This document shows positions 45,116-61,663 of a DNA stretch of 64,000 nucleotides, piece after piece (within the stretch, counting starts at the first letter, position 1; each line of letters starts with the position of its first letter). The translations under genes and the position numbers were made by a program. The DNA comes from an uncultured delta proteobacterium. Its GTDB lineage: Bacteria > Desulfobacterota > Desulfobacteria > Desulfobacterales > B30-G6. The notes beneath the pieces were generated by a model that was given only the letters and a program-made list of their open reading frames with translations, made no database searches and was not told where the DNA came from. The stretch covers positions 320,001 to 384,000 of the forward strand of contig CAWGLD010000007.1 in assembly GCA_963823335.1 (NCBI GenBank), read 5' to 3'.

Positions 45116-46711
45116 TCAATCGTCTTCCCAGTCATATGCCCTGCCGTCCTCATGGCACGCAATATTTCCGACACTTCTGACCCCACAGCTTCGAGCACCG
45201 GAGGCGTAATCTAAATTGTCCTGAATCGTCTGACTGGGGGCTTGCTCGAACCTGGCCGTATCCAGGCCCACAAAATGTCCGACAGCCAGTTTTTGCGTAG
45301 CATGACAGATCGTGCAGAAGATGTCTTTCTCCTCCACGTGCTTTCTGTGCTCGCCGGAATTGAAACTGTTATACTGGTCGTTTCCACGCTCGTGGCATTC
45401 CAGACAATCCGTATCCACATTGATGGTACCGTCGACCCAACTCCGGGTGGATTGGCCGCCATGGCAACGCACCCCGCTACAGGATGCATTGCCGGAATTA
45501 TAACTGAACCCACCCGTTTCCGCACGGTAGTTAGCCGATAGTGCTACATTGGCCGGTGAATCATCATCAAAATGAACCTCTGTGTCGGTACCGGAACCAT
45601 TGTGACAGGCGCTGCACTGCCCGGTGACCCGGTTGAGAGCGTTGTGAAGCACATGGGCTCCCGATCGATTGGGTCGCTGATCTCCAACCGGAAGCAGGGC
45701 GTCGGGTGGATCGTTGTGACAGGTAACACAGTTTTGATCCACCAGGGGGTCTCCGGTCAGATGACAGCCGCCGCAGGCCGTTCCGACACCCCCTTCCGCA
45801 GCTCCCAACAGGTTTGCGCCATGACACAGCGTACAGGCAGTCTCAAAATTATCGGCTGCCTTGTGACTGTTGCCAACAGCTCCCATCCAGGGCAGGGGAT
45901 GGGCGGTTCGTTTCGAATGACAGTCTTCACACCCTTCTGCCAGCTCTCCGACAAGAAGGTCGAAGCGGGGGTTGCTGCCCGGACCGCCGTCAAAGGGGCG
46001 GGCATGACATCTCTGGCAATAGGTCAGGTCGGCTCTGGCCTCCGGCCCATGAAGATCCGGGTCTGTAAAAGGAATGTCGTGCGGCTTGGCAGGACCATCA
46101 GCGTGGCACCCGGATAGAATATTATCGGTGTTCCTGAACGTGTCGCTAAAGCAACTGGGCGCCTCTGAATTGGGTGCTGGACGGTTCTTTGTAAAATCGT
46201 GACAGATGCTGCAGGTAATGCTCTGTCTGCCGGCATTGCGGTGACTCGACAAGTAGTCCGGGGTCACGTCCGTGCTGCCCTGCCATCGTACAGGATGGGC
46301 GCCTGCCTCCGGGTGGCATCCAATTGCCGAACATCCCGTCGTAGCAAAGCCACCGTCGAATCGTATGGTCCCTGGTTCACCATGGCATTCCTGGCAATAA
46401 TAAAGATCTGCCTTGGCGGCAGGCCCGTGGTCAACGGCGTCTGTAAACGGTAGGGCATGCATGCTGAAAGGAGGTCCGGCCGGATGACATTCCAGACAAC
46501 TGGGGGACTTCCCGGCACCTTTAAAATCAATACCGTGACACACTTGGCATCCGGACAAATCATCGTTGGCCACTTCTCCGTGCTCCTCAATGTACTTGGC
46601 CGGATGTGACGCACGGGGTCCCGGCGCTTCCGGGTTGCTTGTGGAACAGGCCAGCAGACCGCTGAAGATCAGCGTCAATACGATCAGAAGGGATGTTTGT
46701 CTGATGGCCAT
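45116..46711 (-). CDS. Multiheme c-type cytochrome lipoprotein (CxxCH/CxxxxCH)
   Basis: Lipobox LLAC, 12 CxxCH, 2 CxxxxCH, plus possible Cx14CH and Cx9CH. Confidence 0.9.
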   Translation of the reverse strand: MAIRQTSLLIVLTLIFSGLLACSTSNPEAPGPRASHPAKYIEEHGEVANDDLSGCQVCHGIDFKGAGKSPSCLECHPAGPPFSMHALPFTDAVDHGPAAKADLYYCQECHGEPGTIRFDGGFATTGCSAIGCHPEAGAHPVRWQGSTDVTPDYLSSHRNAGRQSITCSICHDFTKNRPAPNSEAPSCFSDTFRNTDNILSGCHADGPAKPHDIPFTDPDLHGPEARADLTYCQRCHARPFDGGPGSNPRFDLLVGELAEGCEDCHSKRTAHPLPWMGAVGNSHKAADNFETACTLCHGANLLGAAEGGVGTACGGCHLTGDPLVDQNCVTCHNDPPDALLPVGDQRPNRSGAHVLHNALNRVTGQCSACHNGSGTDTEVHFDDDSPANVALSANYRAETGGFSYNSGNASCSGVRCHGGQSTRSWVDGTINVDTDCLECHERGNDQYNSFNSGEHRKHVEEKDIFCTICHATQKLAVGHFVGLDTARFEQAPSQTIQDNLDYASGARSCGVRSVGNIACHEDGRAYDWEDD

Positions 46712-46873
46712 TTTTTTGGAATTCCTTGTAAAATTGGATGCGTGATATTTATTTACACGTTGTTCCTGCTGATTGTCAAGAAAGTCGCACCGGACTTAGC
46801 GAAAGATCCACTAGATGGTTTGAATATTTTAACTGTCAATGATAACAAGAATAGAATTATAGGAACGATTTAT

Positions 46874-48352
46874 ATGAAAAAATCAAAAGCCGTCATCGCG
46901 ACCCCTTCCTTTTCCGACTTCTACACCACCACCCATCGCCTGTCGGCTCTGGGCGAAAAAATCGTTGAAAAAATTCTGCGCCGCCGGGCATGGGACACCC
47001 GCTTGCTGCATTTTCCCAGGACGGGAAAACAGACCCTGCCACTACCAGCGGCCCTCTCCCATCTGAAAACCTGTCTGGTTCCAGGTGAGTTCGGTCCCAC
47101 CGCATTCTTTTCCAAATATCAGCGTTTTGGGCCCTCTGCCGAAGACAGTGCCGCCGTCATTCTGACGGAAAATCCCGATGCTGTTTTCCTATCCTGTTTT
47201 GCCTTCGCCTACGCCGACGACACCCTGTCTCTTGCCAGACATCTCAAGGCGCAACGCCCATCCGTGCCCGTCTATGTGGGGGGGGCCGGGGTCAGCGTAC
47301 TCCCGGGATATTTTCAAGCCGAAAAAAGTATCGATGCGGTTATTGCCGGTGAAGCAGAATGGGCCCTGGCAAATTTTCTGGGAGAAGATACAGCCCCGGA
47401 TGACAGTATCGATCCTCACCTCGATAGCCCGGTCCGTATCGACGTCGCCATTGCAAGCACACAGTCTGCCAAAACCGGACAGTGGCTGACAACGGCCCTC
47501 AGTCGGGGATGCCCCCGAAAGTGTCGTTTCTGCGCCAATCACCTGACCCATGGCAGGGTCTTTCGAACCGTCCCCATCGAGGCGTTTTTAGCGGCCCTCC
47601 AGACCTTTTCCAGGGACGTTCCCCTGCACATCAACTTTGAAGACGACAATCTTCTCTTGGGCAAGGACTATTTCTTTGCCCTGCTGGAAGCCATCCGAAA
47701 CCGATTCCCCCGGGTGGATTTCAGCGCAGAAAACGGCATGGACTACCTATTGCTCGACGTCAGCACACTGGACAGGCTCATTGCCCTAGGTTTCAGACAG
47801 TTCAATCTTTCCATGGCATCCCTGTCCCCATCCATTCTGAAGGAATCGCACCGTCAGGGAAACCCGGAACACCTGCAGGAGATTCTTTCTTACCTGAGGC
47901 ACAAAAATATCCCGTCCATCACCTATTTCATTTGCGGTCTGAAACAGGACACACCCGATTCCGTACTTGAAAACCTACGCTTTCTATCCAGACAACCGAC
48001 GCTTATCGGCATATCGCTGTTTTATCCGGTACCGGGTCTGCCGGGATTCAGGGACACCCGACCCTTTTTCGAATCCGACTCCCATCTCTGCACCGGAAGC
48101 GCTGCGTTTCCATGGTCAGGATCCCTCACCACGGCCCAGATGATCACCGCCTTCCGTTTGGCCCGTTTTGTCAATTTCATCCAAAAAAAAGAATACCAGT
48201 CACACGAGGGCGATCTGTTGACACGTATTAAAAATGAAAGAAAACTCTATACCTTCCAGCGCAAGGGAAGGCAAAAATGGATGCTGCGACCGCCGGGTCT
48301 GGATAAAGACATGGAAAAGGCGTTTTTTGAAAATATATATTTTCAGTTTTAG
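46874..48352 (+). CDS. B12-binding-domain radical SAM protein
   Basis: N-terminal cobalamin-binding-like region (V.VGG.G), SRGCPRKCRFC, FEDDN. ATG 46874. Confidence 0.85.
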   Translation: MKKSKAVIATPSFSDFYTTTHRLSALGEKIVEKILRRRAWDTRLLHFPRTGKQTLPLPAALSHLKTCLVPGEFGPTAFFSKYQRFGPSAEDSAAVILTENPDAVFLSCFAFAYADDTLSLARHLKAQRPSVPVYVGGAGVSVLPGYFQAEKSIDAVIAGEAEWALANFLGEDTAPDDSIDPHLDSPVRIDVAIASTQSAKTGQWLTTALSRGCPRKCRFCANHLTHGRVFRTVPIEAFLAALQTFSRDVPLHINFEDDNLLLGKDYFFALLEAIRNRFPRVDFSAENGMDYLLLDVSTLDRLIALGFRQFNLSMASLSPSILKESHRQGNPEHLQEILSYLRHKNIPSITYFICGLKQDTPDSVLENLRFLSRQPTLIGISLFYPVPGLPGFRDTRPFFESDSHLCTGSAAFPWSGSLTTAQMITAFRLARFVNFIQKKEYQSHEGDLLTRIKNERKLYTFQRKGRQKWMLRPPGLDKDMEKAFFENIYFQF

Positions 48353-48605: not shown

Positions 48606-50081
48606 TCACGCCTCCATATGCTCATTCTTCAACGTTTCCAATGCCCTTTCTCGTATCTGATCCAGGGATTGCTGAACATCGGCAGGCAATTTCAGCGGCC
48701 GGTGGTTTTCGAGAATGTCCATGGCCTTACTGACCGCTTTTTGGCCCCATGTTTTTTGCCCCTGGGCCATCCAGGGTTCAAGGGTTTCACGGTTGCAGAG
48801 CTGGGGTTGCCAATGTTCCTGTTTAAAATATTTCATGGTCTGTTCGGTTGAAATAAAGGCGCCCTGGGGACCCACCTGGCGGATCACATCCATGCCGATA
48901 TGCTCCGGGTCGATGTCAAAACCGCGAATAACACGCCTCACGTAGCTGATGATCTCCGCATTCATTACAAGTGCCGCCGGAGACCCCACCAGGCCCTGTC
49001 CCAGATATCCAATGTCATGAATCAGATTGGCACCGTCCAGTCCGGCCATGAGTAAAGAGATAGACCATTCCATGCCGGCCTGCTCATCAGGCACGTGTGC
49101 GTCGCTGACCCCGGCTGTTCCCCACATGGGAATGCCGTAATAATGATACAGATCCGCGCAGGCCGACAGAGCCAGCCTGTATTCCGGACAACCATATACA
49201 CATGCAGATGTCTTCATATCCAGGGTGGACATACCGAACCCGGAAATGATCGGCGCACCTTTGGCCCTTAACTGATGAAGGACGATGCCACTCAAGGCTT
49301 CGGCATTTCCAACGGTAATGGCACCGGCCAGGGTCACCGGTGCGCTGGCCCCGGACATCATACCGGGTGTATAGTTTACCGGGACCGCATTGTCGGCACA
49401 AAAAAAGAGTTTTTTGATGGCCCCCGATGAGTGCATCAACGGCGTCAGTGGCTCAGCATAATGGATATGAATCGGCTTTTCCCTCAAGACATCTTTTCCG
49501 CCAACGACAGCCGCAGCCATCTCATTGATGATGGCGATGTCTTTGGTTCCGGCCGCAGTAAAAAAAATGGGCTTTATGGCGTTTTCCAACTGGGTCTTGA
49601 AGGAATCGATGTACATCAGGTTGGTGGGTGAGTCATATGGCAGGGCATAGGATCCCAAAAAATCGATCTCTTCGAGGGAATCGGCTATCCTGGCGGCATT
49701 TGCCACATCCGCCAGTCTCGACTCTCTCAACACGCCGGACACCAGGTCATAGGTTTTGATCAAATCCGTCCCCATACCGAAATAGGATTTATTGCCTTCC
49801 AGGAGCATGGCCTCCTGACCTAAGCGGTTATAGATGGTGATCCGTGAAGGCGCACTGCGGATGCAGTCTTCAACCAGCCAGTTGGGAATCTGGACGATGT
49901 TGTCTGGTTTTATCCGGCAACCGGCATGGGCCATCATATCCAGGGCCTCCGGATGCATCACCTTGACACCCACCGTTTCCAGGAGTTCCAGGGTGGCACA
50001 ATGAATATGTTCGATCTGATCCCGGGTCAGCACCCGATAGACCGGCAGACATTGTGATTTAAAGCCTGTGTTCATTACCAT
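48606..50081 (-). CDS. Trimethylamine methyltransferase (MttB) superfamily protein, non-pyrrolysine
   Basis: IH..TLELLETVG, GASAPVTLAG...NAE.LSG, SDA.VPDEQAG.E, GANLIHD.G. No in-frame amber. Confidence 0.9.
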   Translation of the reverse strand: MVMNTGFKSQCLPVYRVLTRDQIEHIHCATLELLETVGVKVMHPEALDMMAHAGCRIKPDNIVQIPNWLVEDCIRSAPSRITIYNRLGQEAMLLEGNKSYFGMGTDLIKTYDLVSGVLRESRLADVANAARIADSLEEIDFLGSYALPYDSPTNLMYIDSFKTQLENAIKPIFFTAAGTKDIAIINEMAAAVVGGKDVLREKPIHIHYAEPLTPLMHSSGAIKKLFFCADNAVPVNYTPGMMSGASAPVTLAGAITVGNAEALSGIVLHQLRAKGAPIISGFGMSTLDMKTSACVYGCPEYRLALSACADLYHYYGIPMWGTAGVSDAHVPDEQAGMEWSISLLMAGLDGANLIHDIGYLGQGLVGSPAALVMNAEIISYVRRVIRGFDIDPEHIGMDVIRQVGPQGAFISTEQTMKYFKQEHWQPQLCNRETLEPWMAQGQKTWGQKAVSKAMDILENHRPLKLPADVQQSLDQIRERALETLKNEHMEA

Positions 50082-50156: not shown

Positions 50157-52307
50157 TTATGCAAATTTAGGGTTCATCCGTTTGCATGCCCCGCACACAT
50201 GTATTGTTTCCGGCGCAACCCCATATGGTTTGACCTGTTTTTCCATATACGAAATGTATCTGCCTGCTCCCAGTTCTTTGCCGCATCCATGACAGTATAC
50301 CAGGATATCCCTGCAGAGGGTGATACCGCAAAGCCTGAGAACACACTGACCGTTTTCATGGGTCATGGTCATGGCGCCGGTGGGGCAGCTGTTGACACAA
50401 GCACCGCACAGGATGCACCTTCCGGCGGTTAACTCGAAATCGGTCGGCCCCGGAGCCTGGTGATCAAAATAACCGAGACCCAGTGCTTGAAAACCCAATT
50501 TTTCATGACATGCGTCCACGCATCTGCCGCACTGAATGCACACATCGCACCTGAGGCACCGTAAAGCCTCTGTCCTGGCTGCCTGCGGTGCAAGCGTCAA
50601 TTCCACCTGTTCGAAAGTCTTTTTCCTTTTCTCTATATCAAGCAGGGGCAACGATGGTCTGGTTAGCGTTGTTTTCTGAGATGCCGTTGTTTCAAGAAAA
50701 GCTGTCTGTGTCCTGCGGGCCGAAAGATATCGTGTTTTCAGCAAAGGCTGTCCCTGGAAGTATCGATGGACGTTCTCCGCCGCTAGTTTTCCAGCCGCAA
50801 TGGCCTCGATAATGGTGGCCGGACCTGTAACCAAATCGCCGCCTGCAAAAACACCTTTTGCTCCTGTCTGCCCCGTCAAAGGATCCGCGACGATGGTGTT
50901 GTGTTCCGTCCACGTCAGACCATTAAAGGCCGAAAGCCCTTCCCGGTCAGACCACTGCCCTATGGCATGAAGAACAGCATCGGTCTTGAGCTCATGCATG
51001 CTCCCCTGGATGGGGATGGGTCTTTTTCTGCCGTTTTCATCGGCCTCCCCGAGCCTGGCGTCCACACAACAAATACCGGACACCTTGCTCTGGGACCCCG
51101 ATATCTCCACAGGAATCTTCAAAAAGGACACCCGGACACCCTCCTGCTCCGCCTGGATGACATCCTCCTTCAGGGCCGGCATTTCACTCCGGGTCCGTCG
51201 GTACAGAACCGTAACATCGCTGCTACCCAAACGCAGTGCCGTTCGGGCGGCATCCAGCGCGACATTACCTCCCCCCACAACTGCCACACGAGAACCAATG
51301 GAAGGTGCATGCCCCAGACCGGCCTGATGTAAATACGTAATGGCATCCATGACCGGTGAAAAATCATTTTCACCTTTTATACCCATTCGCAGCCCTTTGT
51401 GGGCTCCCGTTGCAACATAGAAGGATTCAAACCCTTCCTGTCGCAACGCTTCAACCGTTATGTCCTTTCCCATACGCGTGTTGAAACGAAAGACAACACC
51501 CAGTTCTTGAATCAAAGAAATCTCTCTTTCGAGAACGGACAGGGGCAGCCGGTATCTTGGGATGCCAACACGCATCATCCCGCCGGCCCACGGCAGAGAT
51601 TCGATGACGGTTACACCATAGCCCTTGAGGGATAAATAGTAGGCCGCGCTGAGTCCGGATGGTCCGGCACCCACAATACAGACTTTGTGACCGTTGTCCT
51701 GTGCCCTGGCAGGGTTTTTAAAGCCATCACCCTCAAGGACAATTTTGGATGAAAAGGCTTTGAGGGCCTTGATGGCAACAGGTGTGTCGATGTTTTTCCT
51801 CAGGCAGGCTGTTTCACACGGATGTGTACAGGTCAGGCCGCACACCCATGGGAAAGGGTTGGCTTCCCGAATCAGCGCTATTGCTTCATGATCTCTACCC
51901 TGCCCGATCAAGGTCACGTAGCTTGCCACATCGATACCGGCTGGGCAGGCACATTGACACGCTGCCGGTGACAAAATTTCGCAATCACCCGTCAGACAGA
52001 CATGATCCCTCATATGGGTCTCAAAACAGACACCTTCTGAAAACAGTACCGCTGCAATGGTTTTGCCCAAGAATGCGACCATTTCATTTTGTGAGGATTC
52101 AAGATATTTCCCCAGAGATTCGACCCTGGACAGGTCTTGGGGAAGTGCTTTTCCAAGAGAGATTTTTTCCAGGCTGGCACACAGCGATAAAAGCGCTTTT
52201 ATTAAATGAGGGGCGAGTTGTTTCTGTGATAAACAGGTGCAATCCGAGAGTAGTCGGAACACCGGGCATGAAGGACGTTTTCCTTTCTCAACACTTGTAA
52301 CTTTCAT
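50157..52307 (-). CDS. NAD(P)H-dependent FAD/Fe-S oxidoreductase (GltD/NfnB-like with degenerate NuoF tail and C-terminal ferredoxin)
   Basis: CQCACPAG, CGLTC..PCE..C, VGAGPSG, VGGGNVA.D, RR, FAGGD, CLRC, CIQCGRC, CILCGACVNSCP. Confidence 0.88.
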   Translation of the reverse strand: MKVTSVEKGKRPSCPVFRLLSDCTCLSQKQLAPHLIKALLSLCASLEKISLGKALPQDLSRVESLGKYLESSQNEMVAFLGKTIAAVLFSEGVCFETHMRDHVCLTGDCEILSPAACQCACPAGIDVASYVTLIGQGRDHEAIALIREANPFPWVCGLTCTHPCETACLRKNIDTPVAIKALKAFSSKIVLEGDGFKNPARAQDNGHKVCIVGAGPSGLSAAYYLSLKGYGVTVIESLPWAGGMMRVGIPRYRLPLSVLEREISLIQELGVVFRFNTRMGKDITVEALRQEGFESFYVATGAHKGLRMGIKGENDFSPVMDAITYLHQAGLGHAPSIGSRVAVVGGGNVALDAARTALRLGSSDVTVLYRRTRSEMPALKEDVIQAEQEGVRVSFLKIPVEISGSQSKVSGICCVDARLGEADENGRKRPIPIQGSMHELKTDAVLHAIGQWSDREGLSAFNGLTWTEHNTIVADPLTGQTGAKGVFAGGDLVTGPATIIEAIAAGKLAAENVHRYFQGQPLLKTRYLSARRTQTAFLETTASQKTTLTRPSLPLLDIEKRKKTFEQVELTLAPQAARTEALRCLRCDVCIQCGRCVDACHEKLGFQALGLGYFDHQAPGPTDFELTAGRCILCGACVNSCPTGAMTMTHENGQCVLRLCGITLCRDILVYCHGCGKELGAGRYISYMEKQVKPYGVAPETIHVCGACKRMNPKFA

Positions 52308-52422
52308 ACCTGCACCATATATATACGCTCTATTTAAACCAGGGGTCGCGGAGTTTTTCCACCAAACCTTTCGTTGGAGCGGGAGGGGTGATCAGCAGCG
52401 AAAGCGGCACTGTCTGAATGTA

Positions 52423-53493
52423 TTAGGCTCTATCCAGATTTTCCTCTATATTCTCGAAATCAAAGCCTTCAGGATACTTGGAATAATACTCATGGTACCA
52501 TTCCCTTGCCTCATAAGCCTGGATCAGATGTTCCGCCGGAACACCGAATGGGAGATCTCAGCCGGGGGCAAATGTGAACCCCTGGGTACCGCCTGCCGCA
52601 AGACTGATCAGGGCATCTTCTCTGGGTGACAGAAGTCCCAGGCCGAGGGCAAGGGTCAACTTCAGATTTCCACCAAACCCTTTACCGTATTTTCTTGCGA
52701 TATCACGGACAAAATTCAGGTTCATCTGTTCATCGATGGCAAATCCGTGGGTACCGACCTTGCAGACATCTTCAATGACCTTTGTGCAGTCACCACAGAT
52801 GAAGAAGCTGGAAGTCTTGCCGGCATCATGTATGGCTGTTACGGCTTCCTGGCAGTTGGGTGTCACATATTCCTGAAAAGTCTCAGGTCGAATCTGCGAC
52901 GCTACCGGATCCACGATAGCGATGATATCACACCCCATTTGCGTATAAAACCGGGCAGACTCGGCACAGAGTTTACCGGCATAGGCTATAATGGCATGAG
53001 CGAAATCCTTCTTTTTTTTCAATGCCGTAAAAATACGCACACCGGCCAGATGAGAAGCCAGGGTCAGGGGTCCGGTCACCAGGCCGAGCATGGCGCAGTC
53101 CATTTCGTCGAGTTGCGGTTTGACCTTGGCTGCCGCCTGGAAAATGATCGGCCACCTTCCGGATGTTTTTGTAAACACCCCCAGCCCGAGTTCTTCGGGT
53201 GTCAACTTTTCACAGGGATGGGTCTTCACCGAAGGCACATTGTCTTCCCAGTATTCCAGTTCACAACCAATGGATTCCGCTTCCAGGGAGAGATCGAACA
53301 AGAGGGGGATGCCATCCGCATGATAGGTTTTGGCGGCATGGACAACTCCCCGGGAAAGGATATCCGCATCCTTGAGATACCTGTCTGCTTTTTCATTGAT
53401 AAGATAGGCACAGTTGACACCGGCATACGGAACCCAGGGGGCCTTGTCCGTTTCTTTCCCCCGTGTGGCGTCGATGAGCATCTGTTTGGCCAT
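52423..53493 (-). CDS. MtaA/CmuA (UroD-family) methylcobamide methyltransferase, predicted selenoprotein (356 aa, Sec312)
   Basis: PWVPY.G, DL.LEAE..GC, GPLTLASHL, DPVASQI, GGNL. In-frame TGA (52558-52560) falls in APG*DLP where the family has Cys. Frame continues 44 aa to TAA at 52423. Confidence 0.82.
52522..52557 (-). promoter_or_regulatory. Putative bacterial SECIS element
   Basis: Immediately after UGA: GATCTCCCATTCGGTGTTCC-GGC-GGAACATCTGATC. Apical loop begins with G ~20 nt from the UGA. Confidence 0.65.
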
Positions 53494-53654
53494 GAAATGC
53501 CTCCTTTATGATTTTTTAATTACCTCAGGATTCCCAAAACCTCTTTTCTTCAATACTGCTCGGTGATATTCGATGGTAAGGCAAGCGTTGATCCTCTGAT
53601 TTTTAAGGTCAAGAAGGTCACTCGAACCCTCGACCCCTTGAATCCTTGAACCCT

Positions 53655-54404
53655 TTATTTTTCTCGTATAGATCTGAACTGGCAGTGTTTCATCGCGCAT
53701 TGCAGGCATTTACTGCCCACGGGCTTTTGCTGCGCCGAATCACTGTATATGACAAAACCGGATATGGATTTTGCCGGTTGCATGACAAACGCATCATTCA
53801 GGTGCACACCGGCTGTGTCTTGTCCCAACAGATCGAATATCAGGGTCTGGCTTTCCAGGGCCACGCCATTCAGACCCGGTCCCATCCGACATCCGGAAAA
53901 AAGACCCATCCGTTGTGCATGCATCTCAATCATGTCATTGCATATCAACCCCATGGCATCCAGCATGGCTGTGCCAACAGCATCCAGCAGCAGGGATTGG
54001 TATATGCTGTTGCGTTTTGCAAGATCCCGGCACATGGTCTCGAGGGCACTGCCCAGGCTGCCGACAAAAACAGCAACATACCGGGCATCACTCTCCCACC
54101 TGTCAGGAAGCATGTCAGCATATGCGCCCCTTGACAAAACGATTCCGTATACTTCTTCAATCATGTCCATCGGAATCGCTCGATAACAAATAACCGCCTG
54201 TATCATCCCGACAGTCTGCCGGATGCCCTGGCATACCTGTTGACGTGTCTCCGGGGTCATGGGATAGTCCGGCCCCCCGAAGTAGCGGGCAACAGCCTCT
54301 GGTGACGGCCTGACATCTTCCGGGTCGACGTCAATTCTCACCGTCGATGAATCACCTGCCCCGAATATATCGGCAGTTATGAGTTTTTTCGGTTTGACAG
54401 TCAT
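53655..54404 (-). CDS. Stand-alone cobalamin-dependent methionine synthase activation-domain protein
   Basis: F.GSLG..LE, LLDAVGTA, R.GPG, Q..IFDLL, GV.L...VMQPAKSISG, C-terminal CLQC...C.FR. Confidence 0.85.
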   Translation of the reverse strand: MTVKPKKLITADIFGAGDSSTVRIDVDPEDVRPSPEAVARYFGGPDYPMTPETRQQVCQGIRQTVGMIQAVICYRAIPMDMIEEVYGIVLSRGAYADMLPDRWESDARYVAVFVGSLGSALETMCRDLAKRNSIYQSLLLDAVGTAMLDAMGLICNDMIEMHAQRMGLFSGCRMGPGLNGVALESQTLIFDLLGQDTAGVHLNDAFVMQPAKSISGFVIYSDSAQQKPVGSKCLQCAMKHCQFRSIREK

Positions 54405-54521: not shown

Positions 54522-54548
54522 AAATAAAATCGCCCGGCGATTTTATTT
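54522..54548. terminator. Intrinsic terminator-like hairpin after the mtmB-like gene
   Basis: AAATAAAATCGC-CCG-GCGATTTTATTT 12-bp perfect stem abutting the stop codon. Confidence 0.55.
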
Positions 54549-55930
54549 TAGTAGGGAAACTCAATTCCCATGTCTGCGATTTCATCTTTGATTCTGCGGT
54601 ACATATCGTAATGTTCCTGGGTCGGCACCGCTTTGGCGACATCGTAGCATTCATGGTACTCACTCCCGATGGGCGCATCTGCGGCATGGTCCTCGTATTT
54701 TGCCAGCAATTTCTTGGCAATCGCATTGACTTCGGCCCGGGACAAGCCCTGGCACGCGACAGCATGGCCCACTTCCATGCCGATTCTGGCTTCCAGCGGT
54801 GTTGCACGATTCTTGTATTTGTTGCGGGTCGAAGCCATCTCCCACAGGTGCCATCCAGTGACCGTCGAGACCATGGCGTGAACCGCGGTTTCCCGAAACA
54901 GCATCTCCGTCATGGGACCGGCATTGGCGAATCCATTGGAAGTATGCAGCAGTTTACTGTTTCTGGCCAGCGCCTGCCCTGCCATGGCGATGGCCCACAG
55001 CAACTCCCGGGTGGTGTTGGAACCGTAATTCAAATGAAATGGAAAGTGCTGATTGAAAACAGCACCGTGAATCACCAGACCGATAAGACTGTAGGCGACC
55101 GTGGTCACCGCCGTTCCCTCTGAGCCGCCGCACCATCCACCGTAAATCGCCCCGGTCAGGTTCCCGGTATAGCAGCCATACTGGGCATAATGAAGGGAGC
55201 GATTGAGAAGTGTGTCGGCGGTCTTGAACTCGGTCAGGGACCCTACAAGCCGTGCATCTGATTTTTGAACGCCCCACTCCTGGTTTGATACGGCGATTTG
55301 ACCGCTGTCGTGCTCCGCGGTCCCCACGGCAACCATAAATGTTCCCGGCCGTCCCAGCAGTCTTGCCGCCAGCTTCTGATTGGTGATGTGCTGGATACAG
55401 CCGCTGATTTCAGAGGGACCCGAAGATTCGATCAGATGACCAAAGGTCTCTTCCAGGATCGGCCCGCAAATGCCGTCCAGAAGTGGTTCCTTGAGATAGG
55501 CCATGCACATGGACTGGTGGTACTGCTCGTCACAGGTGATGTCCGGGCTCATGATACAGAATGGGGGGGCCGTGTCTTCCACCTGCCGGTGTTTCCACAG
55601 GACAGCGTCTTTTCCGGCACCCACCCAATATTGATCATGGGCCATATACAGCGCTTCCCGAATCTCTTCATCGGTGACCTGGATCAGCCGGTGGGAATCG
55701 GTATTGTAATACCCCACATCCCGGAACAGCTCCCAGGCAGCCTGCCAGATTCTGTCAGCCATGGCATCGTCTGTGGGGCACGGGTTTTCCGGGTCATATT
55801 TTATTTCATATTTTTTGATAAGTTTTTTCAGGGTCGGTGTAAAGTGCTTGGGAAGAAAATCATCCTCCTCCATAAAAGGACCGGTCTGGGATCGTTCGAG
55901 AATCTCCCAGTGCCTGTAGGCTGTTGTCAT
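54548..55930 (-). CDS. Monomethylamine methyltransferase (MtmB) family protein, non-pyrrolysine
   Basis: 460 aa. TGP.M.E.DF, DD.MAD..WQA, GRPG, IYGG.CGG.EG.A, AGP.TEM, P.EAR, P.G..Y.ECYD. No amber. Confidence 0.88.
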   Translation of the reverse strand: MTTAYRHWEILERSQTGPFMEEDDFLPKHFTPTLKKLIKKYEIKYDPENPCPTDDAMADRIWQAAWELFRDVGYYNTDSHRLIQVTDEEIREALYMAHDQYWVGAGKDAVLWKHRQVEDTAPPFCIMSPDITCDEQYHQSMCMAYLKEPLLDGICGPILEETFGHLIESSGPSEISGCIQHITNQKLAARLLGRPGTFMVAVGTAEHDSGQIAVSNQEWGVQKSDARLVGSLTEFKTADTLLNRSLHYAQYGCYTGNLTGAIYGGWCGGSEGTAVTTVAYSLIGLVIHGAVFNQHFPFHLNYGSNTTRELLWAIAMAGQALARNSKLLHTSNGFANAGPMTEMLFRETAVHAMVSTVTGWHLWEMASTRNKYKNRATPLEARIGMEVGHAVACQGLSRAEVNAIAKKLLAKYEDHAADAPIGSEYHECYDVAKAVPTQEHYDMYRRIKDEIADMGIEFPY

Positions 55931-56205: not shown

Positions 56206-56841
56206 TCATTTTGAGATGATCAAGTTTGCTAAAAGTTCAGGCGCACTCTTGGCGTCCTTACAGTAAAGGTCGGCACCGATCTGGTCGGCCCAAAGCTGGG
56301 AAGTGGGCGCACCACCGATAACAACCTTATATTGATCCCTTATCCCTTTTGAATTTAAAATCTCTATGATTTCTTTCTGACGTGGCATGGTGGTGGTCAT
56401 CAGCGATGAAGCGCCGATGAAATCAGCACCCATGGCCTCGGCCTCCTTGATAAAGGTCAGCGGATCCACGTTGTATCCCAGATCCTTCACCACGAAACCA
56501 TTGGTTTCCAGGATGAGCTTGACGATATTTTTGCCGATTTCATGCAGGTCCCCTTTGACCACGCCGATCACGATCTTGCCTTTGACTTCCTGTCCGCCGA
56601 CCTCGTCCAGATAGGGCGCCATTACCTCGACCACAGCGGACAAGGCCTCTCCGGCCAGCATGATCTCGGGAAGGAAAATTTCCAGTTTTGAAAACAGGTC
56701 CCCCACATGTGCCATGGTCCTGGTCATGGCCGCTATCATTTCCAGAGGGTTTGCACCGTCCTTGAGAAGCCTTTCGGCAAGCTCCCGGGCCTCCTCTGCT
56801 TCACCGTCTTCCACAAATTTGCTCAATTCCTCCAACGACAT
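56206..56841 (-). CDS. Corrinoid (cobalamin-binding) protein, MtmC/MttC family
   Basis: VG.LF...EIFLPE, GDLHEIGKN (DxHxxG), SSLMTTT, IGGAP. RBS AAGGAGG before ATG 56841. Confidence 0.93.
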   Translation of the reverse strand: MSLEELSKFVEDGEAEEARELAERLLKDGANPLEMIAAMTRTMAHVGDLFSKLEIFLPEIMLAGEALSAVVEVMAPYLDEVGGQEVKGKIVIGVVKGDLHEIGKNIVKLILETNGFVVKDLGYNVDPLTFIKEAEAMGADFIGASSLMTTTMPRQKEIIEILNSKGIRDQYKVVIGGAPTSQLWADQIGADLYCKDAKSAPELLANLIISK

Positions 56842-57047
56842 GTCAGGCCTCCTTGCTATCAGCTCTTTTAGGATAATAATATAGATTGTTATAATAACGC
56901 ATTTCACCTTGCCCTGAAGCAAGATGTTGCCGTAAAAAATCAGAAATTCCGGAGAACTAGATGAACATCGAATCCCGTCACGGCGGGAAACGTTCAGCAT
57001 CCAACGTCGAATACGACAGGTCTCCGCATTTTGTACGGCTTCCTAAG

Positions 57048-57120: not shown

Positions 57121-57867
57121 TTATGGGGTCATGTTTTCCTGTTTAAAGAAATCGGCTGGGTCGAACTGGGGCGAGAAGGTATCCCGGAAAGCCATCTCAC
57201 CGCGCATGTAATACTCCACATAGGTAACCGGATCGTCAAATGAATAGATCGTCCGCTTGATATGGAACACAGGATAACCCGGTTTTACACCAAAGATGGG
57301 GGCGGTCTCTTCTGAAAGAACGATCGCCTCCATACTCTGGCTGATCCTGGTAAGCTGCAGTTTGTATTTATTGATCAGAATGCTGTGAATGGATTCGTTT
57401 TTGAGATCCTCCCAGAGAATACCGGCACAGATATCAGGCCGTAGGTACCGTATTTCGTAACGCACCGGCTTTTGATCGAAATACCACAGACGGCTGATAA
57501 GAATCAACTGCTCCCCGGTTTCCAGCTGTTTTGAAACATCGGCCGGAGGGTCTACCACCTGTGCCTTTTGAACATCCGTTGTCAGAACCACGTTCAGATC
57601 GTCAGCCCACTTCTGAAACGGTCTGACCCGGAAAAATCCGGTGGTGTAATGCTTCTTCTTCACGAAGGTACCCTTGCCCGGCACGCGCTCAACAAACCCT
57701 TCCCTCTCTATGGCATCGATGGCTTTTCTGGCCGTCATGCGGCTGACACCAAAGGTTTCCGCCAGCCTGTTTTCCGAAGGCACAACATCCAAAAAATTTC
57801 GTGCCTTGATGCCTTTGATGACATACTCCTTTATCTTTTCGTATTTCGGAATCTTTTTTTGCATCAT
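57121..57867 (-). CDS. hutC: GntR/UTRA family regulator, HutC-like
   Basis: PKYEKIK, PSE..LA..FGVSRMTARKA, PGKGTFV, UTRA domain, divergent from hutU. Confidence 0.82.
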   Translation of the reverse strand: MMQKKIPKYEKIKEYVIKGIKARNFLDVVPSENRLAETFGVSRMTARKAIDAIEREGFVERVPGKGTFVKKKHYTTGFFRVRPFQKWADDLNVVLTTDVQKAQVVDPPADVSKQLETGEQLILISRLWYFDQKPVRYEIRYLRPDICAGILWEDLKNESIHSILINKYKLQLTRISQSMEAIVLSEETAPIFGVKPGYPVFHIKRTIYSFDDPVTYVEYYMRGEMAFRDTFSPQFDPADFFKQENMTP

Positions 57868-57895
57868 ACATCCCCGTTTCACGGTCTGAAAACCC

Positions 57896-57905
57896 TGTAT
57901 ATACA
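57896..57905. promoter_or_regulatory. HutC-type operator upstream of hutC
   Basis: TGTATATACA. Confidence 0.7.
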
Positions 57906-57995
57906 TCTGGCACACTATAGCCCCACCCGTTTGGATTGTCGAGAGCAAATTCCGCTTGACAAGTCCGGGAACGATGGTCATAACTACTCTTTGAT

Positions 57996-58005
57996 TGTAT
58001 ATACA
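57996..58005. promoter_or_regulatory. HutC-type operator upstream of hutU
   Basis: TGTATATACA, downstream of TTGACA at ~57956. Confidence 0.75.
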
Positions 58006-58062
58006 GGTCTGGCTCGTCTCCGCCTGGCTTTATAGAACCTTTCAGGGTGCAAAGGAGGTCCC

Positions 58063-60096
58063 GTGACAACCCATCCCCTTGCTGGTGATACCATGATGAT
58101 CGAACCGGACCAAAATCTCCCCGAACTGCCTGAGTTTGAAAGAGATATTCGCCGGGCCCCGGACCGCGGCTTTCGTCTGACACCCCAACAGGCTGAAATA
58201 TCGCTGAAAAATGCCCTGCGCTATATTCCCGTAAAATGGCACGAAACCCTGGCATCCGAATTTCTGAATGAGTTGATGACACGTGGGAGGATCTATGGTT
58301 ACCGGTATAGACCCGCAGGGCCCATCAAGGCCAGGCCGGTTCATTCCTACACAGGCAGATGTCTTGCCGGAAAAGCCTTCCAGGTGATGATCGACAACAA
58401 CCTTGATTTTGACGTCGCCCTCTATCCTTATGAACTGGTGACCTATGGAGAAACCGGGTCTGTCTGCCAGAACTGGATGCAGTATCGCCTGATAAAAAAA
58501 TATCTGGAAGTACTCACCGAGGACCAGACTCTGGTGGTGGCATCCGGTCATCCCCTGGGGCTTTTTCAATCAAGACCGACCAACCCCCGGGTCATCATTA
58601 CCAACGGATTGATGGTTGGCAGATATGACAACCTGGATGATTGGGAAATTGCCGCCCAGATGGGAGTGGCAAGTTACGGCCAGATGACGGCTGGAGGATG
58701 GATGTATATCGGTCCCCAGGGTATTGTGCATGGGACCTACAATACACTCCTGAACGCAGGTAGAATAAGATTCGGTCTGAGCAAGGAAGCCAATCTTGCC
58801 GGACGACTGTTTGTCTCTTCAGGCCTGGGGGGCATGAGCGGCGCTCAACCAAAAGCCGCAGAGATCGCCGGAGCCGTATCCATTATCGCCGAGGTTGATG
58901 GCTCCAGGATACTGACCCGGCACCAGCAGGGCTGGGTAAAACATGTCTCTGACGATCTGGAAGAAACCTTTGCCCTGGCGGCTCAGGCCACTCAGAAGGG
59001 GGAACCGCTCTCCATCGCTTTTGCCGGGAACATCGTCGATCTGCTGGAGTACGCGGTGGACCACAACATAAAAATCGACCTGCTTTCGGATCAGACGTCA
59101 TGCCATGTGGCCTATACCGGCGGGTACTGCCCCCAGGGCATCACCTTTGAAGAAAGAACCCGGCTCCTGGCAGAAAACAGAGGGACATTCTGTAAGCTTG
59201 TGGATAAAAGCCTCCGTCGCCACTTTGAATTGATCAAGATTCTCACGTCCAGGGGTGTCTATTTTTTTGATTACGGCAATGCGTTTCTAAAAGCGGTTTT
59301 CGACGCAGGCGTAACCGAAATTTCCAACAATGGCCTCGACGAAAAGGACGGGTTCATCTTTCCATCCTACTTTGAGGACATCATGGGACCCCATATTTTT
59401 GATTTCGGATACGGCCCGTTCCGCTGGGTCTGTTTGAGCGGTGATCATAATGACCTGGTAAAGACCGACAAGGCAGCCATGGACTGCATCGATCCCCTTC
59501 GCAGGTATCAGGACAGGGACAACTGGACCTGGATCAGGGATGCGGAAAAGTACCATCTCGTAGTGGGAACCCAGGCCAGGATCCTGTATCAGGACGCGGA
59601 AGGCAGAATCAGGATCGCACTGAAATTCAACGAGATGGTAAGAAAGGGAGACGTGGGCCCCATAATGATCGGCCGGGATCACCACGATCCCGGCGGGACG
59701 GATTCACCCTTCCGGGAAACAGCCAATATAAATGATGGCAGCAATGTGATGGCCGACATGGCCACCCACTGTTTTGGTGGAAACTGCGCCAGGGGTATGT
59801 CCATGGTCGCTCTGCACAACGGTGGCGGGACAGGGATAGGAAATGCCATAAACGGCGGGTTTGGCCTGGTGCTGGACGGCAGTCAGAGAGTGGACGACAC
59901 CATCCGGTCCGCTATTTCCTGGGATGTCATGGGCGGTGTGGCCAGACGGAACTGGGCCCGCAATACCAATGCCATGGAGGTCTGCCGAACCTTCAATGAG
60001 GCGAACAAGGGTGTGGGTCATGTCACCATTCCCTATCTGCCGGAAGAAAGCCTGGTTAAGGATATCGTGTCCAACGCTTTTAAGAAAAGGTCCTGA
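58063..60096 (+). CDS. hutU: Urocanate hydratase (long form)
   Basis: MIDNNLD..VA.YPYELVTYG, YGQMTAGGWMYIGPQGIVHGT, GLGGMSGAQ, SDQTSCH, GRDHHD, HNGGG. RBS AAGGAGG. Confidence 0.95.
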   Translation: MTTHPLAGDTMMIEPDQNLPELPEFERDIRRAPDRGFRLTPQQAEISLKNALRYIPVKWHETLASEFLNELMTRGRIYGYRYRPAGPIKARPVHSYTGRCLAGKAFQVMIDNNLDFDVALYPYELVTYGETGSVCQNWMQYRLIKKYLEVLTEDQTLVVASGHPLGLFQSRPTNPRVIITNGLMVGRYDNLDDWEIAAQMGVASYGQMTAGGWMYIGPQGIVHGTYNTLLNAGRIRFGLSKEANLAGRLFVSSGLGGMSGAQPKAAEIAGAVSIIAEVDGSRILTRHQQGWVKHVSDDLEETFALAAQATQKGEPLSIAFAGNIVDLLEYAVDHNIKIDLLSDQTSCHVAYTGGYCPQGITFEERTRLLAENRGTFCKLVDKSLRRHFELIKILTSRGVYFFDYGNAFLKAVFDAGVTEISNNGLDEKDGFIFPSYFEDIMGPHIFDFGYGPFRWVCLSGDHNDLVKTDKAAMDCIDPLRRYQDRDNWTWIRDAEKYHLVVGTQARILYQDAEGRIRIALKFNEMVRKGDVGPIMIGRDHHDPGGTDSPFRETANINDGSNVMADMATHCFGGNCARGMSMVALHNGGGTGIGNAINGGFGLVLDGSQRVDDTIRSAISWDVMGGVARRNWARNTNAMEVCRTFNEANKGVGHVTIPYLPEESLVKDIVSNAFKKRS

Positions 60097-60097
60097 A

Positions 60098-61663
60098 ATG
60101 CAATCCATTGTTATCGACAAGGAAAATTTGACCATTGAGGATGTGGTGGCCATCGCCCGAAAAGGTGTGCGGGTCGATGCCTCCAGCCAGGGCGTGCTGC
60201 GGGTCGAAAAAGCCCGTGAGCTGATCGCCAAATGGGTCAGTGAAAAAAAAGTGATCTATGGAATCACCACCGGGTTTGGCGCCTTGTGCAATGTTCCCAT
60301 TTCGGAATCCGACACCCGGTTGCTGCAGAATAAAATCATCATGAGCCACGCCTCGGGCGTGGGGTCACCCCTTCCCGAAGATGTTGTTCGGGCTGTAATG
60401 GCCGTCCGGCTGCATGACCTGTTCATGGGATACTCCGGCTGTTCAATCACGACCCTGCGGTACTTGATGGCCTTTCTCAACCAGGGGCTGACACCGGTCG
60501 TGCCTGAAAAGGGATCGGTGGGATCCAGCGGAGACCTGGCACCCATGGCTCACCTGGGTCTGGTTCTGTTAGGAAAAGGCGAGGCTTTTTATAAGGGCGA
60601 ACGCCTCAGCGGTGCCAGGGCACTGGAAAAGATCGGACTTTCCCCCATCAGCCTTGCAGCCGGGGAAGGTCTGGCCCTTATCAACGGTACCCAGGTAATG
60701 ACCGGCATCGCCACCCTGGTGGTTCACGATGCCATCCGCCTGGCAAAAATGGCTGACATCGCCTGCGCCATGAGCCTGGAAGTGCTCATGGGAAGCAATT
60801 CTGAATTCGACCCGCGAATTCATCAGATACGACCTCATCCGGGGCAGATTGCGTCAGCCGAAAATATGCTGCGACTGACCAGTGAAAGTGAAATCATTCT
60901 CTCCCACGAAGGATGCGCCCGTGTTCAGGATGCCTATACCCTGCGATGTTCGCCCCAGATTCACGGTGCCAGTAAGGATGCCGTCGTACATGCTCAAAAT
61001 GTTGTGAAGATTGAAATCAATGCATCCACCACCAACCCGTTGATCTTCACCGACACCCAGGAGATCCGCCTGGGAGGAAATTTTCACGGCCAGCCCATCG
61101 CCATGGCAGCCGATTACCTCTCCATGGGGATTGCCGAATTAGGGAATGTGTCCGAACGTCGCATCGAAAGGCTGGTCAACCCGCAATTGAGCGAACTGCC
61201 CGCCTTTCTGGTAAAAAACGGCGGACTCAATTCAGGATTCATGATAGCCCAGTACACGGCCGCCGCCCTGGTTTCCGAAAACAAAGTGCTGGCACATCCA
61301 GCTTGTGTGGACTCGATTCCCACTTCTGCGAACAAGGAAGACCATGTCAGCATGGGCACCATCGCTATTCGACAGTGCCGGGAAATTCTGGATAATGTAG
61401 AGCATGTTCTTGCCGTGGAGATGCTGTGCGCTGCTCAGGCCTATGATCTCCTGAATGAAAAGAACAAAATGATGGGAGGCAGGGGCACTCGGGTAGCCCA
61501 CCAGGTAATTCGAGAAACAATTTCCTATCTTGAAGAAGACCGGGAGCTGTTCATAGATATCGAAAAGATGGTGGCCCTGATCCGCTCAGGTAAAATAATA
61601 CACGCAGTGGAAAAGGCTGTGGGTAAGCTCGATCTGGTCAGCTTTGATAAACAGAGCTGCTGA
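60098..61663 (+). CDS. hutH: Histidine ammonia-lyase
   Basis: YGITTGFG, SHASG, GSVGSSGDLAP (MIO-forming tripeptide SSG), LINGTQ, QDAYTLRC, GGNFHG, EDHVSMG. Confidence 0.92.
   Translation: MQSIVIDKENLTIEDVVAIARKGVRVDASSQGVLRVEKARELIAKWVSEKKVIYGITTGFGALCNVPISESDTRLLQNKIIMSHASGVGSPLPEDVVRAVMAVRLHDLFMGYSGCSITTLRYLMAFLNQGLTPVVPEKGSVGSSGDLAPMAHLGLVLLGKGEAFYKGERLSGARALEKIGLSPISLAAGEGLALINGTQVMTGIATLVVHDAIRLAKMADIACAMSLEVLMGSNSEFDPRIHQIRPHPGQIASAENMLRLTSESEIILSHEGCARVQDAYTLRCSPQIHGASKDAVVHAQNVVKIEINASTTNPLIFTDTQEIRLGGNFHGQPIAMAADYLSMGIAELGNVSERRIERLVNPQLSELPAFLVKNGGLNSGFMIAQYTAAALVSENKVLAHPACVDSIPTSANKEDHVSMGTIAIRQCREILDNVEHVLAVEMLCAAQAYDLLNEKNKMMGGRGTRVAHQVIRETISYLEEDRELFIDIEKMVALIRSGKIIHAVEKAVGKLDLVSFDKQSC

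Follow-up and report, generated by a model that had tools for sequence, protein, structure and literature searches.

A predicted selenocysteine-containing MtaA/MtbA-like methyltransferase encoded across an in-frame UGA in sulfate-reducing bacteria

The stretch of DNA analysed here, referred to as the window, comprises 64,000 nucleotides (nt) from an uncultured delta proteobacterium (GTDB lineage Bacteria; Desulfobacterota; Desulfobacteria; Desulfobacterales; B30-G6; assembly GCA_963823335.1, contig CAWGLD010000007.1, positions 320,001 to 384,000). Its minus strand carries a gene for a protein with the fold of uroporphyrinogen decarboxylase (UroD) that resembles MtaA and MtbA, the methylcobamide:coenzyme M methyltransferases of methanogens, and whose reading frame contains a TGA triplet that is, in all probability, read as selenocysteine (Sec). 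The features of this gene are the following.

52423..53493, minus strand: predicted selenoprotein coding sequence, 356 amino acids (aa) and TAA; UroD-fold, MtaA/MtbA-like corrinoid methyltransferase
53500..53506, minus strand: Shine-Dalgarno sequence AAGGAGG, 6 nt upstream of the ATG, read off the sequence
52786..52806, minus strand: FFICGDC motif, F230-C236; C233 corresponds to the Cys of the HxC zinc motif of MtaA, and F231 replaces its His
52558..52560, minus strand: in-frame UGA, codon 312, predicted to be read as Sec from TGA in 77 of 80 relatives and from alignments with Cys
52527..52545, minus strand: hairpin resembling a selenocysteine insertion sequence (SECIS), with an 8-bp stem (52545-52538 with 52534-52527) and the triloop GGC (52537-52535); supported by comparison
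52426..52467, minus strand: last 14 codons, GFDFENIEENLDRA, left over from the 3' end of a thioredoxin-like (Trx-like) gene, fused in frame after a deletion of ~600 nt

As called, the open reading frame (ORF) at 53493..52558 (minus) encodes 311 aa with the C-terminus GFTFAPG and ends at the TGA at 52560-52558. Beyond this triplet, the same frame continues for 44 aa, DLPFGVPAEHLIQAYEAREWYHEYYSKYPEGFDFENIEENLDRA, up to the TAA at 52425-52423; the original prediction had started from this layout, a frame that runs on after FTFAPG, and re-reading the sequence recovered it. The Pfam URO-D match spans residues 3-330 of the read-through product (profile positions 3-343 of 346, E 1.2e-42), and hence the domain extends across the TGA. 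Otherwise TGA serves here as a normal stop codon, 19 of the 50 ORFs of at least 110 aa in the 64-kb window terminating at it. The triplet and the hairpin that follows it are spanned by contigs from two metatranscriptome libraries (X6, 52470-52722, and X9, 52430-52613) and by a contig from a sediment DNA run (X2, 52514-52774), with no difference listed in any of them. Contigs from RNA libraries are taken as a sign of presence and not as proof of transcription, and coverage gaps and shares below 0.2 in the comparison of sequencing runs were given no evidential weight.

Relatives were collected at two levels. A scan with one genome per species yielded 209 stretches, the best 80 of which are used in the analyses described here, and a word-indexed search of 5.8 billion proteins yielded 1033 matches. 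The codon aligned with codon 312 is TGA in 77 of the 80 loci and TGC in three. In none of the 79 complete loci, i.e., those uninterrupted by a contig end, is there more than one in-frame stop, and all of them begin at an aligned start codon; 30-36 conserved residues follow the TGA, with the consensus D-x-P-[FY]-D-V-P-x-E-H...Y-P. Among the best 120 database homologues, 94 are exactly 311 aa long, corresponding to a cut at codon 312, and 23 have a length of 341-348 aa. Position 312 is occupied by Cys in 11 of 12 aligned full-length homologues, within the motif (A/S)PG-C-D, and by Trp in the other. Trp at the Sec/Cys position was seen in no homologue other than this latter protein (P0069, 344 aa), which also has Ser in place of C236. 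Even sampling of the phylum (401 genomes) gave ten genomes (that of the window included) with a match at E <=1e-60; exactly one TGA is found in ten of the 11 matches in these genomes, and none in the remaining one. On this comparative evidence, the TGA at codon 312 is not accidental, its conservation being far above chance, and what is predicted to be the same hidden selenoprotein is present in many sulfate-reducing bacteria.

The hairpin, GGTGTTCC-GGC-GGAACATC, starts 12 nt downstream of the TGA, which places the first G of the loop 21 nt after the UGA. Comparison of the 77 TGA sequences, aligned over 51 nt (stem columns 16-23 and 27-34), showed that the first G of the three-base loop is invariant, that the stem positions pair in 89.7% of the cells, and that three of the eight pairs are changed on both sides (6 cells); the covariation score was equalled by 0 of 500 shuffles. 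One of the compensatory cases (L029) alters the protein, in that a His to Arg change is paired with a change of GAT to GAC. Judged from the alignment, synonymous constraint is a stronger signal of the hairpin than covariation. Codon entropy is zero at Val318 (GTT in 73 of 73) and Pro319 (CCG in 77 of 77), compared with medians of 1.84 bits for eight conserved Val columns and 1.65 bits for 15 conserved Pro columns. The codon entropies of Asp317, Glu321 and His322 are also the lowest of their residue kinds, and codons 317-322 thus have the lowest entropy among all conserved D, V, P, E and H columns. No such hairpin is found in the three loci with the Cys form (TGC).

The genome to which the window belongs, whose assembly is 93.9% complete, contains selA (610 bits, cut-off 268), selB (373 bits, cut-off 242), the gene for tRNA-Sec, selC (75 bits, cut-off 47), and selD (372 bits, cut-off 125), the last of which carries one in-frame TGA. 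In selD, the TGA is followed after 14 nt by a 6-bp stem with the triloop GGA, the first loop G again lying 21 nt after the UGA. This putative SECIS, itself read from sequence only, thus has in common with the hairpin of the methyltransferase gene a GGN triloop and the 21-nt spacing. The same genome has a second member of the family on contig 5 (G000:C5:244017-245048; L101), with 69% identity and one in-frame TGA, which is flanked by DUF6951, DUF2284 and a small Trx-like ORF; the genome's only full copy of this small ORF is the one adjoining the contig-5 paralogue. A more distant Trx-like copy (42% identity; G000:C5:229975-230223; L106) has its own in-frame TGA. The TGA in the paralogue and that in the Trx-like homologue therefore indicate a selenoprotein-rich region.

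We consider it highly probable that UGA-312 is decoded as Sec via SelB and tRNA-Sec, directed by the short downstream hairpin. A hidden selenoprotein with Sec inserted at this UGA is what the original prediction had proposed, and the TGA in 77 of 80 loci, the tail, the hairpin and the Sec machinery all speak for it. The comparisons that it had named came out in its favour: TGC or TGT is not the rule among orthologues, Cys stands opposite the UGA in 11 of the 12 full-length homologues as well as in three of the 80 loci, and the peptide after the UGA is conserved in relatives and folds as part of the barrel in the AlphaFold2 model. The G-loop hairpin that it had noticed after the TGA was found at 52545..52527, backed by covariation and zero codon entropy, and the selABCD set that it had called for is present above all cut-offs.

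The AlphaFold2 model of the protein has a pLDDT of 93 and a pTM of 0.91; the residues that follow Sec, including a helix at 320-336, are modelled with confidence, and residues 343-356 are not. The best solved match by Foldseek is MtaA of Methanosarcina mazei (4AY8/4AY7, TM 0.83-0.87, ~21% identity), ahead of true uroporphyrinogen decarboxylases. The UroD TIM-barrel fold is thus recovered by Pfam, AlphaFold2 and Foldseek alike, and the score against the HemE model TIGR01464 (48.1) lies below its cut-off of 302.95. The phmmer alignment to 4AY7 places F231 opposite the His of lHiCg, C233 opposite its Cys, and codon 312 opposite the Cys of apgCg. According to the available passages of a study on the superfamily, its S-methyltransferases use a His-Cys-Cys zinc site (PMC10418091). 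Taken with the 4AY7 alignment, this statement puts Sec at a metal-ligand position of a site that has lost its His: Phe231 stands where the His was, C233 retains the first Cys, and Sec312 takes the place of the second Cys, so that the His-Cys-Cys set is incomplete.

In sets of 51 and 64 family members, F230, C233 and G234 do not vary and F231 has a conservation of at least 90%; D254, E255 and Q256 are also invariant. We considered C233-x-x-C236 as a conserved CxxC ligand pair and rejected it, C236 being Ala in many members. The replacement of His by Phe is clade-wide, being found also in the Cys forms and in a sister clade at 35-39% identity, and it is therefore not tied to Sec; classical paralogues encoded by neighbouring genes retain LHICG. 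The original prediction had placed the UGA at the conserved metal-ligand Cys, with which the alignment of codon 312 with the C-terminal Cys of MtaA agrees. It had also proposed an active site remodelled along with Sec insertion; of this, the change from His to Phe is confirmed against 4AY7, and its connection with Sec is not.

To place the Sec and Cys forms relative to each other, a quick maximum-likelihood tree of 98 rows was made (77 Sec, 15 Cys, 1 Trp and 5 sister-clade outgroups), from which L084, being truncated, was omitted and for which the Cys rows were selected from among the database hits; as support is by SH-aLRT only and the outgroup branches are long, it allows coarse statements only. 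The family forms one clade (SH-aLRT 99), and the window gene lies within a 12-row clade in which all members are Sec forms (support 95). At least four changes between Sec and Cys are required on the tree, and the Cys forms are mostly located near its base. Sec forms of Desulfofundulus, other Bacillota and a metagenome-assembled genome (MAG) of Spirochaetia (L058, L064, L069 and L070) make up one clade nested among Desulfobacterota, which suggests horizontal transfer of the module. The family is isolated: the identity of its representatives falls from at least 58% to at most 40%, the nearest full-length relatives having 35-39%.

The gene lies in a cluster whose other members, in the order of the minus strand, are listed here with the number of loci in which they recur; these numbers come from tblastn among the 80 loci, whose flanks are limited by contig ends.

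57121..57981, minus strand: GntR/HutC-type regulator at the head of the cluster; Pfam GntR and UTRA; in 13 of 80 loci
56206..57000, minus strand: corrinoid protein, MtgC/MtbC-like; Pfam B12-binding and B12-binding_2; homologue near the gene in 53 of 80 loci
54548..55930, minus strand: MtmB-like methyltransferase without pyrrolysine (Pyl), candidate methyltransferase 1 (MT1); Pfam MtmB, E 9.4e-87; in 23 of 80 loci
53655..54404, minus strand: protein of 249 aa with a region like the activation domain of MetH; Pfam Met_synt_B12, E 4.6e-9; in 14 of 80 loci
50157..52307, minus strand: GltD-like NAD(P)-binding Fe-S flavoprotein; Pfam Pyr_redox_2, Fer4_20 and Fer4_7; in 4 of 80 loci
48606..50081, minus strand: MttB-family methyltransferase, 491 aa, candidate MT1; Pfam MTTB, E 2.2e-97; in 10 of 80 loci

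All these genes are on the minus strand, and the selenoprotein gene sits between those for the MetH-activation-like protein and the GltD-like flavoprotein. The corrinoid protein scores 180 bits against the NCBIfam model pyl_corrinoid, below the cut-off of 215. The MtmB-like protein has Val200 opposite Pyl202 of the solved MtmB 1L2Q, and its gene has no in-frame TAG; being a non-Pyl relative of MtmB implies a substrate other than monomethylamine. In-frame TAG is likewise absent from the gene for the MttB-family protein, which scores 427.7 bits against the trimethylamine equivalog TIGR02369 (cut-off 525). The GltD-like flavoprotein, at 501 bits against PRK12771 (cut-off 516), is a possible electron donor, and the MetH-activation-like protein has a possible role in corrinoid reactivation. 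In related clusters, the place of the latter gene is occupied by that for the activase RACo, and it may represent another route of corrinoid reactivation.

Within 57121-61663, a urocanase gene (58063-60096) and ORF 59861-61663, which encodes an aromatic amino-acid/histidine ammonia-lyase, lie with the HutC-type regulator next to the methyltransferase genes. Of the 80 loci, 4 have HutU and 1 (L052) has the ammonia-lyase. It would be speculation, prompted by the gene content, that the substrate of the operon is an N-methylated histidine derivative. Beyond the MttB-like gene lie genes for a B12-binding radical SAM protein (46697-48352, plus strand) and a multihaem cytochrome c (45116-46711, minus strand); the radical SAM gene recurs in L019. 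More distant members of the family (60-72% identity) are found in a different cluster, which consists of a classical UroD paralogue, a corrinoid protein, RACo, DUF6951, DUF2284, the selenoprotein, a small ORF and CobW, and whose upstream parts are present in 27-30 of the 80 loci. In L074, an MtrH-like gene is located 3' of the selenoprotein gene.

The small ORF deserves separate consideration. Among the 66 loci with at least 2.5 kb of flank, 60 have a highly conserved ORF of 128-145 aa directly 3' of the selenoprotein gene, at about +1050 to +1500 from the gene start (L018-L097), in whose product C-A-A-C is invariant and a Trx-like LP(T/S) motif is present; in 49 of the 66, a gene for a CobW-family GTPase then follows. 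The small protein matches no Pfam family, and against the NCBIfam model for a thioredoxin-like selenoprotein it reaches E 1e-7 to 3e-9 (32-37 bits, below the cut-off of 105). The same Trx-like domain is fused to the C-terminus of a UroD-like enzyme in four sister-clade proteins (P0128, P0129, P0131 and P0134; 458-539 aa), the small ORF and the fused domain sharing 43% identity over 88 aa (E 8e-18) and 37% over 84 aa (E 9e-17). By its adjacency and these natural fusions, on which the link rests, the small ORF looks like an undescribed partner family.

Neither the small ORF nor the CobW gene follows the selenoprotein gene in the window. Comparison by blastn with L018, L019, L021 and L023 showed that, where the methyltransferase gene ends, the window sequence resumes within the 3' part of the small ORF, and this deletion of ~600 nt explains why the tail of 14 residues is unique to the window. 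The junction is bridged by the RNA-library contig X9 (record 25, 52430-52613), which comes from another study, and in a DNA run other contigs diverge at 52468-52471. Thus, the frame of the 44-aa continuation that had been described originally is real, and it had been overlooked that its last 14 residues are a deletion remnant of a neighbouring gene.

Several known systems can be compared with the one described here. With MtaA and MtbA, the protein shares the UroD TIM-barrel, the C-terminal (A)PG-C/U-(D/G) and the upstream Cys of xxC-G, as well as an operon with a corrinoid protein and homologues of methylamine-type MT1 enzymes. It differs from them in that the identity is ~21%, the scores lie under the NCBIfam cut-offs, the His is replaced by Phe and the C-terminal Cys by Sec, and the hosts are sulfate reducers. 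The MtaA/MtbA systems of methanogens are not known to include a Trx-like CxxC protein or CobW. The sister clade (P0126-P0147, 35-39% identity) resembles the family in its Phe-for-His replacement, in the position of the APGCD motif and in its Trx-like CxxC partner, which is fused in four of its proteins; these proteins differ in having Cys and not Sec.

The Mlp proteins of type 1 mlp clusters are also bacterial MtaA relatives of the UroD superfamily that occur with corrinoid proteins (PMC10418091). As described in the available passages of that study, Mlp clusters contain corrinoid proteins and activases and are associated with the metabolism of sulfur and selenium and with genomes that encode Sec machinery, the Mlp sites are His-Cys-Cys apart from those in several Mlps1, and a type 1 cluster has at least Mlp2 and Mlp3 with a corrinoid protein and a Ram/RACE activase (PMC10418091). 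In contrast, the cluster in the window has a single UroD-family gene and neither RACo nor Ram, and does not have the composition of a type 1 cluster; the more distant family members, by comparison, are accompanied by a second UroD gene, a corrinoid protein and RACo. The same passages report no Sec inside an Mlp, and the main text makes no mention of stop codons, truncation, CobW, DUF2284, Desulfo or Proteobacteria (PMC10418091). Another likeness is offered by the mercury-methylation corrinoid protein HgcA, a selenocysteine form of which is tabulated in the accessible part of a review (PMC13188914). In both cases Sec would replace Cys within corrinoid-dependent methyl transfer; HgcA is, however, a corrinoid-binding protein of another fold and family, whereas here Sec is in the methyltransferase.

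Our preferred reading, to which we assign a probability of roughly 0.6, is that the protein is a Sec-containing methylcorrinoid methyltransferase of the methyltransferase 2 (MT2) type with a metal site formed by Sec312 and Cys233. Observed are the Sec-type recoding signals, the fold, the active-site alignment and the gene partners, and from these we infer the MT2 direction, the metal, the acceptor and the role of the partner. The MtmB-like and MttB-like enzymes would load methyl groups onto the corrinoid protein, from which the selenoprotein, as MT2, would pass them to a soft-atom acceptor of the thiol or selenol type. The acceptor would be activated by a catalytic metal bound to Sec312 and Cys233, perhaps with the invariant Asp254 and Glu255. 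Loading of this metal would, in relatives, fall to the CobW-type GTPase, and the Trx-like CxxC partner would either maintain the Cys/Sec pair in reduced form or bring in the substrate. The MT2 role is suggested by the operon, in which the selenoprotein is the sole MT2 candidate beside two MT1-type enzymes, and metal binding by Sec312 and Cys233 is favoured because of the association with CobW.

Several observations weigh against this reading. The support for selenium in the protein is at the level of sequence and not of protein. The 66-nt region of the hairpin is not more stable than shuffled sequences (z = 0.92; 169 of 200 shuffles fold at least as well), and the evidence for the hairpin is therefore comparative, not thermodynamic; no Rfam family matches 52300-52700 in a scan at E up to 10, and the covariation is thin, with six cells in three pairs, because the hairpin is nearly invariant. 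As to the active site, C236 is unconserved, many members having Ala, and with the His replaced by Phe a classical zinc site does not appear assured. The protein scores below the cut-offs of the NCBIfam models for the MtaA/CmuA family (TIGR01463, 126 vs 235.4), MtaA (NF040654, 105.3 vs 400) and MtbA (NF041608, 82.1 vs 600), and would thus be MT2-like in role yet outside these equivalogs. The second UroD-type enzyme or MtrH-like gene found beside the gene elsewhere would fit an MT1 direction too. Finally, because the Trx-like partner and CobW have been lost, the window copy could be decaying, or it could be relying on the paralogous locus on contig 5.

The alternatives differ in how well they withstand these data. 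It is possible, though rather unlikely, that the enzyme is zinc-independent and that the selenolate of Sec312 attacks methyl-Co(III), the resulting Se-methyl-selenocysteine intermediate passing the methyl group on, with the Cys233/Sec312 pair being serviced by the Trx-like CxxC partner. The original prediction had named a selenolate acting as nucleophile or methyl carrier as a possibility, together with an acceptor other than coenzyme M, and both would still be conjecture. Such chemistry would be in keeping with the clade-wide loss of the His ligand and with the Trx-like CxxC protein itself, whose adjacency in 60 of 66 loci and fusion in four sister-clade proteins suggest thiol/selenol chemistry over a buried zinc. 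It is contradicted by the existence of Cys forms of the family with the same site, by the metallochaperone-like CobW GTPase in 49 of 66 loci, which points to a metal, and by the homology with MtaA, which puts the Sec residue at the zinc. A related and equally tentative idea is that the Sec-UroD enzyme, the Trx-like CxxC partner and CobW form an unrecognised three-part module in which the selenolate serves as methyl acceptor or carrier and the CxxC protein receives or resolves the group. If true, which we doubt, the module would give sulfate reducers taken to be without coenzyme M a new way, based on selenium, of unloading methyl-corrinoids, and it would possibly also methylate or demethylate soft metalloids.

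An unlikely alternative reverses the direction: as an MT1, the enzyme would, in the manner of MtsA or the Mlp proteins, take the methyl group from a methylated S, Se or metalloid compound and transfer it to the corrinoid protein. This would fit the ~30 of 80 loci in which a corrinoid protein, RACo and a second UroD enzyme, of the classical His-Cys-Cys type, accompany the gene, and also the MtrH-like gene after the selenoprotein gene in L074 and the DUF2284 neighbours, which resemble domains of arsenite-methyltransferase selenoproteins; S/Se-methyl substrates have been proposed for related Mlps in the passages available of PMC10418091. In the window-type cluster (23 of 80 loci), however, there are two dedicated MT1-type enzymes, and the selenoprotein is the sole MT2 candidate.

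The remaining two concern the decoding. That the UGA is read through by a near-cognate standard amino acid (Trp, Cys or Gly) instead of Sec is very improbable: the Trp of P0069 at position 312 would agree with it, but the genome has the full Sec machinery and a selD with an in-frame TGA, the hairpin is selD-like with identical spacing, the synonymous constraint falls exactly on the hairpin, and TGA is the normal stop of 19 of the 50 window ORFs. Least probable is a true stop, or a nonsense mutation or sequencing error, with a 311-aa product or a dead gene. Although 94 of the best 120 database gene calls end there and the window copy has a 3'-end deletion, 77 of 80 species-level loci have the TGA, the frame beyond it being conserved and free of a second stop; the same TGA is present in independent contigs from RNA libraries and from DNA, and the 311-aa form would miss the catalytic residue and the last helix of the barrel.

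The Sec-containing MT2-type enzyme that we favour possibly represents an uncatalogued selenoprotein family. No model of NCBIfam release 20 claims the protein, and full-text literature searches, which covered the literature in part and limit any statement on novelty accordingly, returned no UroD/MtaA-type selenoprotein. Term searches found no UroD/MtaA-type entry in the 119-family table of a 2026 review, as far as it is accessible (PMC13188914), nor such a selenoprotein in the accessible main texts of PMC1976440, PMC9312934, PMC1794560, PMC12013277 and PMC5029168. One supplementary file of Kivenson et al. 2021 contains no match, and the tables of 34 putative selenoproteins of that study may lie outside this file.

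If confirmed, the protein would join a very small number of examples of Sec in corrinoid-dependent methyl transfer. Public gene calls (NCBI, JGI and ENA) truncate it at 311 aa and thereby drop the catalytic residue, so that the annotation of Desulfobacterota is wrong at this locus in many genomes. Among cultured bacteria, the family is carried by Desulfocicer vacuolatum (DSM 3385, L087), which has the window-type cluster, Desulfospira joergensenii (DSM 10085, L036), Desulfatitalea alkaliphila and Desulfofundulus thermobenzoicus (DSM 14055, L064), which makes it testable. The Phe-for-His site and the Trx-like partner bear on the question of which methyl acceptor is used by MtaA-like enzymes in bacteria without coenzyme M, and the gene would link the supply of selenium with the breakdown of methylated nitrogen compounds in the sulfate reducers of marine sediments.

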